Shown here one piece after another: positions 32,931 to 54,022 of a stretch of 64,000 nucleotides of DNA. Source of the DNA: Escherichia phage Lw1; the sequence record KC801932. The stretch is one strand, 5' to 3'. Made by a program: the position numbers and the translations under genes. The stretch's first letter is position 1. Each line of letters begins with the position of its first letter. Under the pieces are notes generated by a model, which worked only from the letters and a program-made list of their open reading frames with translations, made no database searches and had not been told where the DNA came from.

Positions 32931-34505
32931 ATGAACTTTTTGGGCTTTGGCAATGTACTTAGCTTTTTCAAGAATTTCGCCCGTGAGGATGAAATTGAAC
33001 TTGAACAGCAATTAAAAAATGATACAGGTTCGGTCGCGCCTCCTAAAAATAATGATGGTGCTTACGAGATCGAAACCGATCTGAATAACCAGAAATATGC
33101 TGGCGTATTCCAACAATTTTATTCTGGACAAGATCCAGCGATCCAAAACAAAGAACAATTAATTAATACGTATCGCGGTATTATGTCTTATCCAGAAGTT
33201 GAAAACGCAGTGTCGGAAATTATCGACGATGCGATCGTTAACGAACAGGGTAAAGATATCATCACCCTGGATCTGGCTAAAACGAATTTTAGTAAGGCTA
33301 TTCAAGATAAGATCGTTGAAGAGTTCGACAACGTTCTAAATATCTATGACTTTGATAACATGGGCGCACGTCTGTTCCGTGATTGGTATGTGGATTCCCG
33401 TATATACTTCCATAAAATCATGCACAAAGACGAAACCAAAGGTATCCGCGAACTGCGTCAACTTGACCCGCGTTGCATGGAACTGATCCGAGAATCTATC
33501 ACAGAAACCCTTGATGGTGGCGTGAAAGTATTCCGGGGTTATCGCGAATTTTTCGTGTATAGCGCTCCTAAAGCTGGCTATACATACAACGGACAGATCT
33601 ACCAGGCAAACCAGAAGATTAAGATCCCGCGCTCCGCTATCGTGTACGCTCATTCCGGTCTGGAAGATTGCAGCAACAATATTATCGGATATCTTCACCG
33701 CGCTGTCAAGCCTGCAAACCAATTGCGTTTGCTTGAAGATGCGATGGTGATCTACCGTATTACCCGTGCTCCTGAACGCCGTGTGTTCTATATCGACGTT
33801 GGACAGATGGGCGGTAACAAAGCGACTCAGTACGTGAATAACATTGCACAGGGCTTAAAAAACCGTGTTGTGTATGATGCCCGTACAGGTACTGTTAAAA
33901 ACCAGCAGAACAACCTGTCAATGACAGAAGATTACTGGTTGATGCGTCGTGACGGTAAAGCGATTACAGAGGTTTCTACGCTTCCAGGCGGTCAGAACTT
34001 CTCTGATATGGATGATATCAAATGGTTTAACCGTAAGCTCTATGAAGCCCTGCGTGTGCCATTAAGCCGTATGCCTCGCGATGACGGGGGTATGCAAATT
34101 GGTGGTGGTGGTGAAATCACCCGTGATGAACTCAAATTTAACAAGTTCATACGCACACTGCAAATTCAGTTCAGTCCTGTTCTGTCAGATCCGTTAAAAA
34201 CGAACCTGATTGCGAAAAAAGTCATCACCGAAGATGAATGGGACGAGAACGTTAGCAAAATTTCGTTTATCTTCCAGCAGGATTCATATTATGCGGAAGT
34301 AAAAGACATCGAGATCATGGAACGCCGTCTAACGTTGATGTCTCAGGTCGAGGGTGTAGTTGGGAAATATGTCTCCCATAAATACATCATGAAAGAGATT
34401 CTTCGAATGTCCGACGAGGATATTGACGAACAAGCGAAATTGATCGAAGAAGAATCTAAAGAAGAACGTTTTAAAAATCCAGAAGCGGAAGAGGAAAACT
34501 TTTGA
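32931..34505 (+). CDS. 20: portal vertex protein gp20
   Basis: 524 aa (same as T4 gp20), synteny. Confidence 0.95.
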   Translation: MNFLGFGNVLSFFKNFAREDEIELEQQLKNDTGSVAPPKNNDGAYEIETDLNNQKYAGVFQQFYSGQDPAIQNKEQLINTYRGIMSYPEVENAVSEIIDDAIVNEQGKDIITLDLAKTNFSKAIQDKIVEEFDNVLNIYDFDNMGARLFRDWYVDSRIYFHKIMHKDETKGIRELRQLDPRCMELIRESITETLDGGVKVFRGYREFFVYSAPKAGYTYNGQIYQANQKIKIPRSAIVYAHSGLEDCSNNIIGYLHRAVKPANQLRLLEDAMVIYRITRAPERRVFYIDVGQMGGNKATQYVNNIAQGLKNRVVYDARTGTVKNQQNNLSMTEDYWLMRRDGKAITEVSTLPGGQNFSDMDDIKWFNRKLYEALRVPLSRMPRDDGGMQIGGGGEITRDELKFNKFIRTLQIQFSPVLSDPLKTNLIAKKVITEDEWDENVSKISFIFQQDSYYAEVKDIEIMERRLTLMSQVEGVVGKYVSHKYIMKEILRMSDEDIDEQAKLIEEESKEERFKNPEAEEENF

Positions 34506-46104: not shown

Positions 46105-46938
46105 TCAACCCCATGTATCGGTTTTAGGTGCGTATGCTGCAACTTTAGCCACTAATTCCTTATCAAGCTGATCAATGGATTTCTGCGGTTTGCCTTTTGC
46201 CTTAACTTTGATGTAATTAGACTTGACAACGAACATACCGCCTTTGTCGGATTTCTTAACTTCGCTATCAATACCAACTTTGTTAAAGCTGATCCAGATG
46301 TCACCATCCATGTACTGTTTCAGAGAATCGCCCATGTTAAGGATCTTAGCCATAGTAAGCGCGGCCCCTTCGTGGGTATCCATGAGGATCTCTTTTGGAA
46401 CAACACGGTCGCGTTTCAGGTTCTGCTGCATGGCAATATGAACATCGTTCATTACCCAAACGATATGGATGTTTTCTTTCTTGTACCCCAGCGCTTCAAC
46501 ATCACGGGCGATACTTGCCAGTTTGCTCATGCTTTTCAGGGTTACGTCAAAAATCAGGTTTGGTTTGCGATCTTCCGGTGCTGCTGCGATACCAGCATAA
46601 ACACGCGCCTGGTTTTTGTTTGATACGTTGAAAACGTCTGCGATCACATGGTGAAGTGTTGCAACGTTATCAGGGTTTTTCAGGTTCATTGTTTTAACGT
46701 CATGACCTGTTTTTGCTTTAATTTCTGCTGCTAGTTTGGTGCTACCCATTACCAGCTTTTTCAATGCGTCAACGTCCAGTGTGATCCCTTCGATGCCTAA
46801 CAGCTTTTCGAGAGTGAAGCCTTTACCGGAACCCGCACCGCCAGCCAGGATCACGACCTGACCGAATTTCTGATAAGCCTTACCGCCGAAGGTAATCAGC
46901 GCTTCATCAAGGCTCACAAAGTCTTTGAATGATTTCAT
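46105..46938 (-). CDS. protein with CTS-like N-terminus and glycine-rich nucleotide-binding loop (candidate packaged P-loop enzyme)
   Basis: N-terminus MKSFKDFVSLDEA resembles capsid targeting sequence; VVILAGGAGSGKGFT loop; GGAG SD. Confidence 0.6.
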   Translation of the reverse strand: MKSFKDFVSLDEALITFGGKAYQKFGQVVILAGGAGSGKGFTLEKLLGIEGITLDVDALKKLVMGSTKLAAEIKAKTGHDVKTMNLKNPDNVATLHHVIADVFNVSNKNQARVYAGIAAAPEDRKPNLIFDVTLKSMSKLASIARDVEALGYKKENIHIVWVMNDVHIAMQQNLKRDRVVPKEILMDTHEGAALTMAKILNMGDSLKQYMDGDIWISFNKVGIDSEVKKSDKGGMFVVKSNYIKVKAKGKPQKSIDQLDKELVAKVAAYAPKTDTWG

Positions 46939-46970: not shown

Positions 46971-47000
46971 TTGACATCGTTTTGCTGATGGATTTATAGT
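46971..47000 (+). promoter_or_regulatory. sigma70-type promoter (TTGACA - 18 nt - TATAGT)
   Basis: In divergent intergenic region upstream of ORF 47051. Confidence 0.45.
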
Positions 47001-47050
47001 GAAGATGTTCGACGGATAGGCCGGAAGAACTTTAACCATAAGGTGACATT

Positions 47051-47944
47051 ATGAAACTTGAATTAAACCGCTTCATCAAAGCCGCTGCTGCTGGCGACCA
47101 GTCAAAATATACATCACGCCGCAACCACACATTGTCAAACGATTTCGCTGACCTGCTTGGGTTCAAGCGCTGGCATACTCCGGTTATGCGTCCCGACTGC
47201 GATCCTAAATGGGATTACTTTCGTTGGAGTATTCCCAAACATGCCATTGTGAAAAAGATCCGTGTGATGTCTTTCCGTTTTCTGTATCCTAACTGTATCA
47301 TCGAAATCGCAAAAGAACGAGATATCACCCTCCCTAATGGTTGGAAACTTGCTGACCTGATGGAAACACTGATCCAGATGCGTAGAGAATACAAAGCTGG
47401 ATACATCCGTTCCTTTGATAAGTTGGGTGATTACTCAGACAGCGATAATTACAAAGAATGGCAAATGATCGCAAAGTACCTGTTAAACAGCATATGGATT
47501 ATTATTTGCGGCAAAGGTTCTGCGATCAACCTGGGAGGTCATGAAATTATTGCCCGTGCTCGCGAAAAGGTTTGTGATGCGGTAAACAAAATCATTTCTT
47601 CAGGTGGCGTTGTTCTGCATGTAAACGTTGACGAAATCGTGTATTACGGCGAACAGGTGGAAGTTGATAATGTCCATCATGAAAAACACTGGAAAGCTAT
47701 TTTTACTGGTGGCGGTGCTGCATGGGGTGATAATATGATAACAAGTGGCCCCATTCCAACGATTAAATTTGACCTTGATGACTGGGAACCGCAAAACAAC
47801 GGTATTCGTTCGGTCGAGGAACAACGCGCAATGGCTGAACGTATGGCTGCAACGCGAATCAAACGTTTCACCAATGAAATCATAGAGTATATGAACCGCA
47901 CAAAAGAAGACGTGTTGAAAGATGTTGACTTGTCCGGTGAATAA
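47051..47944 (+). CDS. hypothetical protein (297 aa)
   Basis: ORF track; promoter upstream. Confidence 0.6.
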   Translation: MKLELNRFIKAAAAGDQSKYTSRRNHTLSNDFADLLGFKRWHTPVMRPDCDPKWDYFRWSIPKHAIVKKIRVMSFRFLYPNCIIEIAKERDITLPNGWKLADLMETLIQMRREYKAGYIRSFDKLGDYSDSDNYKEWQMIAKYLLNSIWIIICGKGSAINLGGHEIIARAREKVCDAVNKIISSGGVVLHVNVDEIVYYGEQVEVDNVHHEKHWKAIFTGGGAAWGDNMITSGPIPTIKFDLDDWEPQNNGIRSVEEQRAMAERMAATRIKRFTNEIIEYMNRTKEDVLKDVDLSGE

Positions 47945-47980
47945 CTGTAAGCTGTAATCACTGAAAACAAGGAGATAACC

Positions 47981-48298
47981 ATGAAAACGATTCACTGCCG
48001 CGAAGAACACGTTGTTTATTACCACGGATCTTGTACTGCTGCTGGGATTGAGAGCATGTTGTTGCCTCCTTGTGCTTCTGAAACTCTGTCTGAAAAAGGC
48101 AGAAAGAAAAATCTGGATCGTGTTTTCTTCACTGCTGACATCGGACTTGCTCGGATCTATGCTGGAAGGGCTGCACGTTCTATAGGTGGTGATCCGGTAC
48201 TGTATCGGGTTGTGTGTCCGGTTGATGCTGTATGTATGAACGACGACAAAGGCGCGAGCGTTTACCATGCTGCATGGGCTTTCTGTGAGGAAGTATGA
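47981..48298 (+). CDS. small Arr-like ADP-ribosyltransferase-fold candidate (105 aa)
   Basis: VYYHGS ... RVFFTADIGLARIYAG ... LYRVVCPVD resembles H-G-S/T, Y-F-S/T and hydrophobic beta-strand elements of rifampin ADP-ribosyltransferase (from memory, not searched). Confidence 0.45.
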   Translation: MKTIHCREEHVVYYHGSCTAAGIESMLLPPCASETLSEKGRKKNLDRVFFTADIGLARIYAGRAARSIGGDPVLYRVVCPVDAVCMNDDKGASVYHAAWAFCEEV

Positions 48299-48462
48299 AT
48301 GACCGTGTTTTAGCAGTTCTCGTTTTCCTTCTGGGTTATCGAGTTGAAGTAATGGGTGGTATCATGGCGATGGACGGTGACCTGACCGCAATTTGGGTTA
48401 CTGCTTTAGGTGTGATGTTCACGTTTCTTTCTTTTGCGATTGTTAACGAGGCAAACAAATGA
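48295..48462 (+). CDS. small membrane protein candidate (55 aa)
   Basis: ATGA overlaps with both neighbours; hydrophobic segments LAVLVFLLGY and IWVTALGVMFTFLSFAIV. Confidence 0.35.
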   Translation: MNDRVLAVLVFLLGYRVEVMGGIMAMDGDLTAIWVTALGVMFTFLSFAIVNEANK

Positions 48463-48785
48463 AACTATTTCATGTAGTGTATGGCGGTATACGTAATCTT
48501 GATGTACCATTGCTTGCTGCGGGAACAGTTGATACACTTGAAGGTAAGATCGGGAAGCGTTTTAAAACTACCGTATCCGAAATCAAAACGGTGTTTGTTG
48601 ACCATCCGTCAGATATGGAAAATTTAATCAATACTCTGGATGACTTGATGATTCCGTTTGCGGAAGAATTTCATTATCAATCAGGACTGTATTTGATTGT
48701 GACATTTGTTCTAAAAAATGTTGACAATCGAAATCCAGAAGTGTTAGATTTTGTAAGAAAAATCGATTCAATTAAAGGAAAGTGA
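48459..48785 (+). CDS. hypothetical protein (108 aa)
   Basis: ORF track, translational coupling. Confidence 0.5.
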   Translation: MKLFHVVYGGIRNLDVPLLAAGTVDTLEGKIGKRFKTTVSEIKTVFVDHPSDMENLINTLDDLMIPFAEEFHYQSGLYLIVTFVLKNVDNRNPEVLDFVRKIDSIKGK

Positions 48786-49126
48786 TTATGAAAATCGTTC
48801 AGCGTAATATCAGCGAAGTTAGCCAGGAAGAAAAAGTTCAGATTCATTTCAAATTTAATGATCTGAAACGTGGTTATGCAGAAATTGCCCGTGTTCATGG
48901 GCTGGACAATGGGGATATTTATATGATTGTCCAAGAAATTGAGCGAATTCGTGCTTTCCGTGCGGAGAACCCGAAAGTAAAACGCGTTCTGCGTCGTGTA
49001 TATGTCAACAAACACCGCAAAGCGGCGAAACAAGTTAAAACCAAACGCGAACCGCGTCCAGATAACAAACGTAAAGCAATCAACGGTGCTATGGCGCTGG
49101 CTTTCCAGGAAGCGGGTTTAGTGTAA
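48782..49126 (+). CDS. hypothetical basic protein (114 aa)
   Basis: ORF track; K/R-rich C-terminus. Confidence 0.5.
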   Translation: MIMKIVQRNISEVSQEEKVQIHFKFNDLKRGYAEIARVHGLDNGDIYMIVQEIERIRAFRAENPKVKRVLRRVYVNKHRKAAKQVKTKREPRPDNKRKAINGAMALAFQEAGLV

Positions 49127-49135
49127 GGGGCTGAC

Positions 49136-49666
49136 ATGAGTCGTAGACAAAATATGGAACGTTGGACTGGTGTTGTAACCAGCAGTGTTAAACCAGTTAC
49201 CGCTGTAGTGAAAGAAGTTGTTGAAGAAACTCCGGTTAAAACTCAGATGGTTATTTCTCTGAGTGATGAAGAGTTAGAGCATCGTCGCCGTGCGAATCAA
49301 ATTGAATTCGATCTGCGTATCGCTCGTTCATACAACAGCAAAAATGATGATGCTCGTAGCCGGAATCTGCAATTTGCTCTTACGTTGAGTGATTGGACCT
49401 CTTTAATGAGTCAACCAACTTGCTTGTATTCTGGGAAGGTGTTTAGTTCTCGTGGAGATAGCCCGAATTCTCGAACGATGGAACGAATTAACCCGATGCT
49501 GGGTTACACTCCAGAAAATACGATCGCAGTGACAAAAGCCGCTAACAGTGAAAAATCATCACTTGATGCGTTTATGAAGGGTTCGGTAATCCTTCCAGAA
49601 GTAAAACTGAAACTGTTACGCAAAGCCGCGTATCAAATTGAAAAACAATTGAAAATCAAAGGTTAA
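49136..49666 (+). CDS. hypothetical protein with degenerate HNH-like C-terminal motif
   Basis: ERINPMLGYTPENTIAVTKAANSEKS resembles HNH_3-type motif lacking the canonical His pair. Confidence 0.4.
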   Translation: MSRRQNMERWTGVVTSSVKPVTAVVKEVVEETPVKTQMVISLSDEELEHRRRANQIEFDLRIARSYNSKNDDARSRNLQFALTLSDWTSLMSQPTCLYSGKVFSSRGDSPNSRTMERINPMLGYTPENTIAVTKAANSEKSSLDAFMKGSVILPEVKLKLLRKAAYQIEKQLKIKG

Positions 49667-49670
49667 TATT

Positions 49671-50717
49671 ATGTTTGTGAAATATTCTTCTCTTACTAAC
49701 CATTACGAAGGTAAGTTCATTAATGGCGTGATCATGAATGGCCTTACTGGTGGTGTGTGGTGTGCTCGTGAAAAGATACACGGTACAAACTTTAGTCTGA
49801 TTACTTCGGACGGTGAAAAAGTCATTCCAGCAAAACGTAGCGGTGAAATCCTTCCTACTGAACAGTTTTACGGTTGTGAACCTGTCGTTGCAAAATATTC
49901 TAATGCTGTGCGCGAGTTGTGGGAAACCCTCGCAAATACCTGTGAATATAAGGAATACGCTGATATCGGTTCTCTGGTTGTACAGGTATACGGCGAATTT
50001 GCGGGGCGTGGTGTTCAAAAAGATGTTGATTACGGAGAAAAAGATTTCTATGTATTCGATATCCGTGTGAATGATAAATTTTTACCAGATAACATTGTTG
50101 CATCGGCTGCTGTTTGTGTTGGTTTGAAAATGGCTCCATTGCTGGCATATGGTACGTTTGAAGAGATCCGCGAACTGCCTATCACGTTTGATTCTGTTGT
50201 CAACCTGGCTAATTCCGGCGCAATTGTTGCGCAAAATGGCGTTGAACCTGCGTTCAAAAACTTCATGACTCTGAAAGATGGTGAAGGTGAAAACATCGCG
50301 GAAGGTTTCGTGATGAAGCCCGTCGAACCTGCTTTCATGCCGAACGGTGAACGCGTTGCGATCAAATGCAAAACGACGAAGTTCACAGAGAAGAAGAACA
50401 AGCAAGCGAACCGCTTCAATGCTCCTGTTGAACTGTCTGAAAATGATAAAGTTAAACTGGATGTGTTTACCTGTTACCTGAACGAAAACCGCGTGAAAAA
50501 TGTTTTGTCTAAAATTGACAGCGCAAATCTCACTGCAAAAGATTTCGGTCGCGTAATGGGCCTGACGGTACAGGATGCGCTGGAAGAAATCGAACGTAAT
50601 TATGGCCCGTTCCTGGAACAGTTCGAGAATCCAACGCTGGCGAAGAAAACCTTCACTAACGAAGCGTCAAATCTGGTTCGTGAGAACTGGGGCGCAATCC
50701 TGAACAATGAATTTTAA
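49671..50717 (+). CDS. rnlB: RNA ligase 2 (RnlB)
   Basis: MFVKYSSLTNHY..., REKIHGTNFSL (ligase KxHG-type motif I), GEFAG.GVQK, RVAIKCK, GRVMGLTVQD closely parallel T4 Rnl2. Confidence 0.9.
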   Translation: MFVKYSSLTNHYEGKFINGVIMNGLTGGVWCAREKIHGTNFSLITSDGEKVIPAKRSGEILPTEQFYGCEPVVAKYSNAVRELWETLANTCEYKEYADIGSLVVQVYGEFAGRGVQKDVDYGEKDFYVFDIRVNDKFLPDNIVASAAVCVGLKMAPLLAYGTFEEIRELPITFDSVVNLANSGAIVAQNGVEPAFKNFMTLKDGEGENIAEGFVMKPVEPAFMPNGERVAIKCKTTKFTEKKNKQANRFNAPVELSENDKVKLDVFTCYLNENRVKNVLSKIDSANLTAKDFGRVMGLTVQDALEEIERNYGPFLEQFENPTLAKKTFTNEASNLVRENWGAILNNEF

Positions 50718-51291
50718 AACGGTTCTGGACAACGCGAAGACGGCTACCCTGATCGGTAGCCGTGAACCCCCCGAACGTATCGCAAACCTCGCAATCAAGA
50801 TCGGACGCGCTTTAAGTGATCGGGAAATATTCGCTTACTCTGGTGGTGCTCCAGGAATGGATAGTCATTTTTTATTTGATTACTCACCAGAAAGACGGCG
50901 TATAATTCTTCCTGAGAACGGTTTTAACGGGTTGTACTCAAATGGTAAGGATATCATCGACTATACAGAATACGACACGTACAAAGCCGCTGACGAAGCG
51001 AGAAAGGTAGCTGGACACTTCGACAACCAAAACGAATGGACACAGCGCCGATATGCTCGAAATTCCATGCAGGTGCTAACCGAACATCTGGATACGCCTA
51101 CGGATTTTGTGTTATTCTGGGCTGTTGAAAAAGAGTTTTGTGTGAAAGGCGGTACTGCGATCGCAGTAAGATTGGCCCGACTGTATGGCATACCCTGTTT
51201 CAATCTCTGGAATGAACGGGTATTAAATGAAGTTTGCGACACTTTGGGGATTAATACTAAACCTCCAACTTTGGATTTTCTCTGGTGCTAA
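50707..51291 (+). CDS. SLOG/DprA-like Rossmann-fold protein
   Basis: YSGGAPGMDSHF motif reminiscent of DprA/LOG-type nucleotide-binding fold. Confidence 0.45.
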   Translation: MNFKTVLDNAKTATLIGSREPPERIANLAIKIGRALSDREIFAYSGGAPGMDSHFLFDYSPERRRIILPENGFNGLYSNGKDIIDYTEYDTYKAADEARKVAGHFDNQNEWTQRRYARNSMQVLTEHLDTPTDFVLFWAVEKEFCVKGGTAIAVRLARLYGIPCFNLWNERVLNEVCDTLGINTKPPTLDFLWC

Positions 51292-52588: not shown

Positions 52589-54022
52589 ATGCAAAAATTT
52601 ACTGAACTGAATAGCCTGATCACCTCAACTGATTCCTACAAAGTGTCTCACTGGATGCAGTATCCACAAGGCACTGATGCAACGATGTTCTATATCGAAT
52701 CTCGTGGTGGTAAATTTGATGAAGTCGTAACTGCTGGCGTTAACTACGTTGCGCGGGTACTGGCTGAACCTGTTACCATGAAACAAGTTGAGTTGGCGCG
52801 GGTGCTTTACCGTAAGCACTTCGGGAAAGAAATTTTCAACTATGAAGGATGGAAAGAGATCGCAGAACTGGGTTACACCCCTGTGATTTTCCGTTCTATT
52901 CCAGAAGGTACAGTTGTTCCGGTTAAAAACGCCGTTGCGACCGTGTTCTCTGAGAATCAATTCTCCTGGTTGGCTGGTTGGTTGGAAACAATGACGATTC
53001 GCGGTATCTGGTATCCGTCATCTGTTGCGACTCTATCCCGTGAGTGTAAAAAGGTTCTGGCTCAGTACCTGAATATGACTTCTGACCTGACTGGCGAAGC
53101 ATATAATGTTACACTGGGTACACGTCTGCATGACTTTGGGGCGCGGGGCGCGACCTCTGCTGAGTCTGCGGGTATTGGTGGGCTGGCGCACCTTTACAAC
53201 TTCGTTGGAACTGATACCGTCGAAGGGATGATTATGGCAATCAGCCTGTTTGCGGATCATCAGACTCTGTTTGATGAACTGGAAAATGTCGAAGCCGCTG
53301 GCATTTCGATTCCTGCTCGCGAACACTCAACGACGATTTCCTACGGTAAAGAAAACGAAGAAGACGCATACAAAAACAGCATCAAAATGTTCGGTACTGG
53401 GTTCTACGCTTGTGTGTATGACTCATGGGACTATAAAGCCGCTGTTGATCGCATTGCTGAGTATAAAGAGAAAATCATTGCTGCGGGTGGTACTCTGGTA
53501 GTTCGTCCAGATTCAGGGGATATGATCGATAACATCATGTATACCCTTCGTAAATTGGCGCAAATTTTCGGATACACCGTAAACAGCAAAGGTTATAAAG
53601 TTCTGCATAACGCAGTTCGTATCATCCAGGGCGACGAGATCCACGGGCCTGAGACAATCAACCGTGTGTTAAGCTGGATGGAAGCGAACAAGTGGTCAAG
53701 CGAGAATATCGCGTTTGGTATGGGTGGAGGTTTGCTGCAAGAAGTTACCCGCGATACTCAAAAGTATGCCGAAAAGCTGTGCGCTATCCGTGTGAATGGT
53801 AAGTGGACAGGCGTTTACAAATGTCCGAAAGGTTCTGAGTGGAAAAAGAGTAAAAAAGGTTTGCTGATGACCATCACTAACGGTATGGAATTCAAGACCA
53901 TTGATATTCTGGAAGACTCAATTCCTGACGGTTGGTTCGATGCGATGGTGACTTATTACGATAATGGTTACTTGAACACCGACGACACTTTAGGGGAAAT
54001 TCGTGAGCGTAGCCGGATTTAA
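52589..54022 (+). CDS. nadV: nicotinamide phosphoribosyltransferase (NAMPT/NadV family)
   Basis: 477 aa; N-terminal TDSYKVSHW motif and overall length typical of NAMPT; GGAG SD. Confidence 0.8.
   Translation: MQKFTELNSLITSTDSYKVSHWMQYPQGTDATMFYIESRGGKFDEVVTAGVNYVARVLAEPVTMKQVELARVLYRKHFGKEIFNYEGWKEIAELGYTPVIFRSIPEGTVVPVKNAVATVFSENQFSWLAGWLETMTIRGIWYPSSVATLSRECKKVLAQYLNMTSDLTGEAYNVTLGTRLHDFGARGATSAESAGIGGLAHLYNFVGTDTVEGMIMAISLFADHQTLFDELENVEAAGISIPAREHSTTISYGKENEEDAYKNSIKMFGTGFYACVYDSWDYKAAVDRIAEYKEKIIAAGGTLVVRPDSGDMIDNIMYTLRKLAQIFGYTVNSKGYKVLHNAVRIIQGDEIHGPETINRVLSWMEANKWSSENIAFGMGGGLLQEVTRDTQKYAEKLCAIRVNGKWTGVYKCPKGSEWKKSKKGLLMTITNGMEFKTIDILEDSIPDGWFDAMVTYYDNGYLNTDDTLGEIRERSRI

Follow-up and report, generated by a model that had tools for sequence, protein, structure and literature searches.

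In phage T4, host takeover is the textbook role of the ADP-ribosyltransferases (ARTs) Alt, ModA and ModB, and recent work has linked these enzymes to RNAylation and the evasion of defences. They belong to the R-S-E clade (PMC9503650), and RB43-type phages reportedly lack alt (PMC1524935). The p0068-like family is one of the commonest groups of viral ARTs (Iyer, Burroughs, Anantharaman and Aravind 2022, Viruses 14:1977, PMC9503650). These authors placed it in the H-Y-[EDQ] clade and assigned RNA-repair and small-molecule chemistries to the H-H-h clade. For enterophages (Escherichia, Shigella and Salmonella phages) they proposed that the p0068 ART forms a toxin-antitoxin pair with Dmd, and they speculated on RNA substrates; in some Klebsiella phages, Mod-like ARTs were found at the same position upstream of dmd. 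The same survey noted bona fide Arr genes in some actinophages and discussed diffusible immune compounds as possible ART targets. Arr itself is defined by an HGT motif (His19), Tyr49, a DPN[VL] motif with the catalytic Asp84, and a C-terminal M[RK][DE]xL motif that contacts rifampicin (PMC6092378).

Here we describe a 105-aa ART encoded in a stretch of 64,000 nucleotides from Escherichia phage Lw1 (KC801932), called the window below. Its assignment as an ART is already known from the literature and from several GenBank records in which orthologues are labelled "putative ADP-ribosyl transferase". Our literature search found no experimental work on RB69ORF040c, Lw1 gp233, phrog_2110 or the p0068 family. 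New in this analysis are the kinship to Arr with controls, the missing Arr determinants, the division into two active-site types, an exceptionally strong purifying selection and findings that speak against pairing with Dmd.

The features of the locus are listed in Table 1. The earlier note had drawn attention to a 105-aa frame with three peptides, and we found the frame, running from ATG to TGA behind a Shine-Dalgarno sequence, with all three peptides in it: VYYHGS (residues 12-17), RVFFTADIGLARIYAG (47-62) and LYRVVCPVD (74-82). The product is Lw1 gp233 (100% identity) and matches phrog_2110, a family annotated without a function, from end to end (E 3e-60). ZZ1p0068 of Acinetobacter phage ZZ1 (P0049), which to judge by its locus tag gave the family its name, is 74% identical (E 6.9e-43), and because of this similarity the 105-aa protein is almost certainly a member of the p0068-like family. 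Counting residues gave a net charge close to neutral, and the protein therefore has no obvious nucleic-acid-binding surface.

Table 1. Features of the ART locus, with positions counted from the first nucleotide of the window
Feature	Position	Strand	Remarks
Sigma-70-type promoter-like site TTGACA-18-TATAGT	46971..47000	+	11/12 matches in a consensus scan; precedes the 297-aa ORF and the ART cluster
297-aa ORF, phrog_7439	47051..47944	+	annotated without a function; 36 nt before the ART
Antisense 222-aa ORF	47600..48268	-	antiparallel to most of the ART gene and to the last part of the gene before it
Shine-Dalgarno sequence AAGGAGA	47969..47975	+	5 nt before the ATG of the 105-aa ORF; read directly from the sequence
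105-aa minimal ART-fold ORF, p0068-like family	47981..48298	+	ATG at 47981, TGA at 48296-48298
His15-Gly16-Ser17 codons, beta-1 H-G-[ST] NAD+-binding motif	48023..48031	+	aligned to Arr-2 H22-G23-T24
Glu38-Lys-Gly40-Arg41 codons, E-x-G-R loop motif	48092..48103	+	common to Arr (Arr-2 E43-x-G45-R46)
Phe49-Phe50-Thr51 codons, beta-2	48125..48133	+	hhalign register; strand 48-51 in the model
Glu103 codon, last strand, candidate third active-site residue	48287..48289	+	hhalign register
55-aa hydrophobic ORF, phrog_7619	48295..48462	+	two apparent membrane-like segments; ATG overlaps the ART stop (ATGA)
NAMPT, nicotinamide phosphoribosyltransferase	52589..54022	+	NAPRTase E 7e-40 and NAMPT N-terminal domain; 4.3 kb downstream of the ART

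The DNA surrounding the gene is about 90% identical to that of Citrobacter phages Xman, Miller and CfP1 and about 84% identical to that of RB16 and RB43, and we accordingly classify the window, from these similarities, as coming from a Pseudotevenvirus, a T4-like phage of the RB43 type. The portal protein gp20 (32931..34505, plus strand) is 100% identical to the RB16 portal. For the region around the ART (47000..50800), DNA identity is only about 84% to RB16, as against about 90% to Citrobacter phage Xman, which gives the genome a mosaic appearance.

Using tblastn, we found orthologues of the 105-aa protein in 608 phage records, all but two of them (606) at a coverage of at least 80%. The carriers are T4-like genomes from at least ten host genera, among them phages of Klebsiella (116 records), Acinetobacter (68) and Aeromonas (62) as well as of Enterobacter, Cronobacter and Vibrio, and the gene is present in roughly one quarter of T4-like genomes. 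When Lw1, the Mosigvirus PhAPEC2 and Acinetobacter phage Konradin were compared in the same reading frame, synonymous sites were saturated (pS 0.69-0.83) and dN was 0.19-0.24, with a dN/dS of 0.07-0.13, showing that the gene is under strong purifying selection. The match to phrog_2110, the 608 records and the saturated synonymous sites with low dN establish that the ORF is a genuine gene. Because selection in the plus-strand frame is so strong, the long antisense ORF is probably spurious.

As a benchmark for this conservation we used the portal gp20 from the same window and the same genera. Identity of the ART to Lw1 gp233 was 72-78% in Acinetobacter phages, 65-67% in Aeromonas phages and 68-73% in Mosigvirus and related E. 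coli phages, compared with 49-51%, 58% and 52-56%, respectively, for the portal. The ART (65-78%) is thus better conserved across genera and under stronger selection than the portal (49-58%), which is unusual for a small accessory early gene. Recent horizontal transfer was considered as a source of this conservation and was ruled out by the saturated synonymous sites. The target of AcrIF11 (PDB 6KYF) is a Cas protein specific to one defence system. The likeness of the 105-aa protein to AcrIF11 is at the level of the fold only (17% identity), and the conservation of the ART across phages of very different hosts argues for a conserved target.

Searches with the single 105-aa protein against Pfam, NCBIfam, PADLOC and PDB sequences returned nothing, and in particular there was no match to the Arr-ms family PF12120 at E values up to 1. 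Neither a narrow T4-like profile nor the bridging homologue P0133 found a match among PDB sequences. The relationship to Arr was revealed only by a broader family profile, by a Pfam scan of distant relatives and by structure comparison. An AlphaFold2 model built from a 58-sequence alignment was confident (pLDDT 90.5, pTM 0.80), and its best structural matches were ARTs, with Arr as the second-best match; in a Foldseek search of the PDB, Arr entries ranked first. The lower-ranked matches were almost entirely ART toxins, PARPs, DarT and RES toxins. In a viral structure library, Foldseek matched the model to polyvalent-type proteins, to a phage KptA and to a 94-aa phage protein that bears the annotation Arr-ms (TM 0.74-0.82).

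When 1.84 billion representative proteins were searched exhaustively with a profile, 232 relatives came up, many of them multidomain. PF12120 was matched at E <= 0.001 by 31 of 54 relatives (best E 1.8e-9), several of which reached 26.9-29.7 bits against a Pfam gathering cut-off of 25. These matches coincided exactly with the stretch found by the family profile and covered only positions 1-67 of the 99 in the Arr-ms model. In a profile-profile comparison with hhalign, the 109-sequence family aligned to 112 Arr sequences over 92-99 columns (score 60.8, E 2e-10, probability 96.8%). The NAD+ lobe of KptA was aligned in the correct register with a much lower score (26.2, E 9e-4, probability 22%); for scale, Arr against KptA scored 18.2 (E 0.046), and 20 column-shuffled controls reached at most 16.3 (E 0.045 or worse). 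The full-length match to Arr needed the broad family profile; the narrow T4-like one matched Arr in its N-terminal half only (73%, E 3e-5). On the basis of these scores against Arr, KptA and the shuffled controls, the family is Arr-proximal with a bridge toward KptA.

Structure, transitive sequence evidence and profile-profile comparison are three independent lines that agree on an Arr-like ART, and the predicted fold of the 105-aa protein is ART-type with kinship to Arr. The reading as an Arr-like mini ART in the earlier note was therefore borne out, both by the profile comparison, which found ART-fold similarity well above the shuffled controls, and by the structure prediction. Its alignment by eye was reproduced by hhalign, which pairs YHGS with the Arr HGT motif, VFFT with Arr IYFS (the Tyr49 strand) and LYRVVCP with Arr IYIVEP. 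The note had also set the protein apart from Alt, ModA and ModB, and this too held, given the Arr/KptA kinship found here against the R-S-E clade of the Alt/Mod enzymes. The latter ARTs, likewise from T4-type phages and directed early at host machinery, are much larger and belong to a different clade. Whereas the published scheme places the p0068-like family in the H-Y-[EDQ] clade (PMC9503650), its nearest relatives by sequence and structure were here Arr and KptA, whose small-molecule and RNA-repair chemistries that scheme gives to the H-H-h clade, and an acid at the third position was found only in the T4-like clade and a few other members.

The protein departs from Arr in several places. 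Compared with Arr (PF12120; PDB 2HW2, 9IAF) it is about 35-45 residues shorter. The HGT motif of Arr is aligned with His15-Gly16-Ser17, and the Arr Tyr49 on beta-3 corresponds to Phe49. The DPN[VL] motif with the catalytic Asp84 is deleted, Arr-2 D91-P-N-L94 facing a four-residue gap in the phage family, and among 109 members we found no conserved acid near the deletion (D or E at position 82 in 58%, E at position 84 in 48%). The C-terminal helix with M[RK][DE]xL is absent as well, since the phage protein ends at Arr-2 residue 118 of 150. The phage family in turn has invariant residues of its own: Tyr60, Arg63, Lys43-Asn44 and Pro29-Pro30. Because Tyr49 is replaced by Phe, the Asp84 motif is deleted and the C-terminal helix is absent, we regard the protein, as judged from the alignments, as Arr-like and not Arr proper, and modification of rifampicin as unlikely. 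Rifampicin resistance as the role of the gene was rejected for lack of the Asp84 motif and the C-terminal helix.

These differences also bear on the possibility that the protein is a true Arr-type small-molecule ART that inactivates a rifamycin-like antibiotic or a diffusible compound such as a host immune metabolite. Arr is the closest characterised family by sequence and ranks second among the structural matches, and the presence of bona fide Arr in some actinophages, together with the diffusible immune compounds considered by Iyer et al., would fit such an activity. However, the Arr catalytic Asp lies within the deletion, the C-terminal helix is missing, and the Arr-ms matches of the relatives stop at two thirds of the model. 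In addition, it is not obvious what a strictly lytic T4-like phage would gain from rifamycin resistance, and injected proteins of the polyvalent, portal and tail kinds contain the domain, which suggests macromolecular targets inside the cell. We consider this possibility very improbable.

We examined residue conservation in 109 diverse members of the family. The constant positions are H15-G16-[TS]17, P29-P30, E38, R41, K43-N44, F49, T51, A57, Y60-A61, R63, G69-G70 and G91. His15 and Gly16 are invariant (100%), with T or S in every member at position 17. In the E-x-G-R loop, E38 and R41 are conserved in 98% and 97% of members, as the corresponding Glu, Gly and Arg are invariant or nearly so in the Arr alignment; the loop is modelled with a lower pLDDT (79-86) than the rest, as would suit a flexible NAD+ loop. 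In the hhalign register, Phe49 takes the place of Arr Tyr49 (Arr-2 Tyr52), so that at beta-2 the aromatic ring is kept and the hydroxyl is lost; this position is Phe in 98% and Tyr in 2% of members, and T51 is conserved in 97%. Glu103 is invariant in the T4-like clade and aligns in a global hhalign with a hydrophobic residue of Arr-2, Ile115. Across the whole family, position 103 is E or D in 28 of the 109 members and I, V or L in most. We infer a role for Glu103 in the active site from this alignment.

With respect to the catalytic His, Tyr and acid, which the earlier note expected to be conserved in homologues, the His is invariant, the Tyr is replaced by Phe in 98% of members, the Arr Asp is deleted, and an acid at position 103 is confined to the T4-like clade and a few other members. 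The family thus divides at its C-terminus into an acid type, VYHA-x-W-A-F-x-E with the acid at 103, seen when the protein stands alone in T4-like phages and in a small number of further members, and a hydrophobic type, A-[KR]-[VI]-[VIL], which resembles Arr and KptA at position 103 and comprises most members found in polyvalent proteins. The sequences suggest two active-site types, which may correspond to two acceptor chemistries.

The loss of the Tyr hydroxyl and of the Arr Asp could also mean that the fold is catalytically dead and binds NAD+, ADP-ribose, an ADPr-derived immune signal or a host protein, serving as a decoy or inhibitor; a tight-binding inhibitor would accord with the very small size and the near-uniform conservation. 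Against this, the best conserved residues are those of the NAD+ site (H15, G16, E38, R41, F49 and T51), a Phe would still be able to stack on nicotinamide, and in polyvalent proteins the domain stands beside other enzymatic effector domains. A dead ART fold is therefore improbable in our view, if slightly less so than a small-molecule enzyme.

The N-terminal lobe of Tpt1 carries three of the four catalytic Arg-His-Arg-Arg residues. This RNA-binding lobe of KptA/Tpt1 (PF01885; PDB 9LD3, 7KW9) is wholly absent from the 105-aa protein, whose alignment with KptA is confined to the C-terminal NAD+ lobe (residues 93-172). PF01885 was matched neither by the 105-aa protein nor by any of the 54 relatives, and the profile similarity to KptA is much weaker than that to Arr (score 26 vs 61). 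We nevertheless considered that the protein, like KptA/Tpt1, might transfer ADP-ribose to a terminal RNA phosphate (2'-PO4 or 5'-PO4), a function that could be associated with phage machinery for RNA repair or RNA protection such as RnlB, Dmd and 2H phosphoesterases. Besides the missing lobe and the absence of PF01885 matches, the Glu103 of the T4-like clade would not be needed for a phosphate acceptor, and the linkage to RnlB is not kept in other genera. Such a KptA-like activity is unlikely.

In the window the ART lies in a same-strand cluster in the order 297-aa ORF, ART, 55-aa ORF, 108-aa ORF, 114-aa DUF2774 protein, Srd-like protein, RnlB, weakly DprA/SLOG-like protein, three small ORFs, NAMPT, 102-aa ORF and Dam methyltransferase. 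The promoter-like site ahead of the cluster suggests, as a consensus match, early expression driven by the host RNA polymerase. The 297-aa ORF is probably co-transcribed with the ART, and the 55-aa ORF is probably translationally coupled to it because its ATG overlaps the ART stop codon. NAMPT could recycle the nicotinamide set free by ART reactions.

Other genes of this region were also inspected. The last codons of RnlB (RNA ligase 2; Pfam RNA_ligase and T4_Rnl2_C) are shared with the next gene, a 194-aa ORF (50707..51291; the two together 49671..51291, plus strand); the match of this ORF to DprA/SLOG is weak (21.6 bits, below the cut-off), RefSeq calls it 'DprA-like', and an RNA-ligase/SLOG pairing of the two is possible. 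The 176-aa Srd-like protein (49136..49666, plus strand), a 'decoy of host sigma70' by phrog_4592, also matches HNH-endonuclease and endonuclease VII PHROGs (E 3e-21 to 2e-5). Divergent from the ART cluster, a 277-aa protein (46105..46938, minus strand) has a Zeta-toxin-type P-loop kinase domain (PF06414, E 6e-8) and belongs to phrog_5268, which is annotated without a function.

The neighbours of the ART differ between genera. The Mosigvirus orthologue RB69ORF040c is located between genes 41 and 61, and in Acinetobacter phages the ART is found in the same 41-61 region with other neighbours. The contigs of distant members are short or hold only unannotated small genes. In the marine Vibrio phage 501E54-1 (L004, 7222..7276), a gene annotated as a TnpB-family RNA-guided endonuclease lies a few kb from the ART homologue.

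The proposal of Iyer et al. 2022 would make the ART the toxin of a type II toxin-antitoxin pair, modifying RNA, with Dmd as the antitoxin (PMC9503650). The adjacency on which it draws was also observed here: in PhAPEC2 and RB69 the next gene downstream of the ART is dmd, with an overlap of 4 nt between the ART stop and the dmd start. The ART of the window is likewise coupled to a small downstream ORF, and a small ORF overlaps the ART stop in other genera too, namely Dmd in Mosigvirus and a 45-aa ORF in Konradin. However, blastp showed no similarity of the 55-aa ORF to Dmd or to the small ORFs located behind the ART in other genera; the ORFs at this place in Lw1, Konradin and PhAPEC2 are unrelated to one another, and no Dmd homologue was found within the 64 kb (best tblastn E 0.49). 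A Dmd antitoxin for the ART of the window was rejected on these grounds.

The wider distribution of the two genes points in the same direction. A tblastn search with the 62-aa Dmd sequence, a short query of limited sensitivity, found Dmd in 801 records from Escherichia, Shigella, Yersinia, Salmonella and a few Citrobacter phages, and did not detect it in the ART-carrying phages of Klebsiella, Acinetobacter, Aeromonas, Enterobacter, Cronobacter and Vibrio. Conversely, about 570 Tequatrovirus-type records, including T4T, have Dmd and no sign of the ART, which T4 itself thus apparently lacks. Adjacency to dmd was seen only in Mosigvirus-type phages. Because the two genes are distributed independently, an obligate toxin-antitoxin relation between them appears unlikely, and we give the toxin-antitoxin explanation as a whole a low probability, below that of a KptA-like activity and above that of a dead fold.

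In unrelated phages we found the domain inside lambda-type portal, minor-tail and giant polyvalent proteins, fused to ART-PolyVal, LPD23, ddrB-ParB, CHAP, GNAT, Toprim, NUDIX and 2H domains. By analogy, this is the architecture of effectors delivered together with the DNA. ART-PolyVal (PF18760) occurs in the same giant proteins, alongside our domain in 8 of the 54 relatives, as do LPD23 and ddrB-ParB; it is a separate ART family, which occupies a different stretch of the same protein (1326-1421 vs 1496-1660 in P0137). Individual architectures include a lambda-type portal with the ART and a 2H phosphoesterase/Acb1-like domain in a head-gene module (P0165), ART-PolyVal with the ART and NUDIX (P0163), a 3924-aa minor-tail-type protein with the ART domain (P0151), and GNAT with Toprim and the ART (P0172).

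We think it reasonably probable that the 105-aa protein is an early NAD+-dependent mono-ADP-ribosyltransferase that modifies a conserved macromolecule in host takeover or counter-defence. It would be a single-domain, NAD+-binding ART of about 95 core residues, among the smallest versions of the fold, retaining only the catalytic core that is common to Arr and the NAD+ lobe of KptA/Tpt1. NAD+ would be held by His15-Gly16-Ser17 on beta-1, the Glu38-x-Gly-Arg41 loop and Phe49-x-Thr51 on beta-2, and Glu103, which hhalign pairs with the third active-site position of Arr, would assist the transfer of ADP-ribose. Without the DPN[VL] loop and the C-terminal helices of Arr, the acceptor face would be open, and because these acceptor-binding parts are missing we infer that the acceptor is macromolecular: a protein or an RNA or other nucleic-acid end, conserved across Gammaproteobacteria or T4-like phages, and not a rifamycin-like small molecule. 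The enzyme would most likely act in the first minutes of infection, since a sigma-70-type promoter-like site precedes the apparent early unit to which the gene belongs, and since portal, tail and polyvalent proteins that enter with the DNA contain the domain; it would be made early in its solo form and injected in its fused versions.

In favour of such an early ART are the fold, the homology to Arr, the conserved NAD+-site residues, the strong purifying selection and the fusion partners, as well as the same-strand cluster with RnlB and with NAMPT, a nicotinamide-recycling enzyme, and the independent assignment to the ART superfamily (PMC9503650). Against it are the Phe in place of the beta-2 Tyr, the deleted Arr Asp, the lack of conservation of Glu103 in the wider family, the near-neutral charge and the absence of Pfam, NCBIfam and PADLOC matches for the protein itself; moreover, the promoter is a consensus match only, and conservation over the whole surface would also fit non-enzymatic binding.

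A bolder version of this reading is conceivable, although we hold it to be rather doubtful. The T4-like clade, with VYHA-x-W-A-F-x-E and Glu103, might represent a fourth, mechanistically distinct class of T4-type ARTs, built on the Arr/KptA scaffold and not on that of the Alt/Mod enzymes. Its target would be universally conserved, for instance a base or an end of RNA or a core factor of transcription or translation. Two acceptor chemistries would then underlie the split into E-type and hydrophobic-type members, and an important role in host takeover or in evasion of RNA-directed immunity would account for a conservation that exceeds that of the portal. If the target of the ART were found, it would constitute a new node of host-phage interaction, possibly an RNA-directed one. 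Work on the target would also define the smallest working ART core and the relation of the antibiotic-resistance enzyme Arr to phage effectors.
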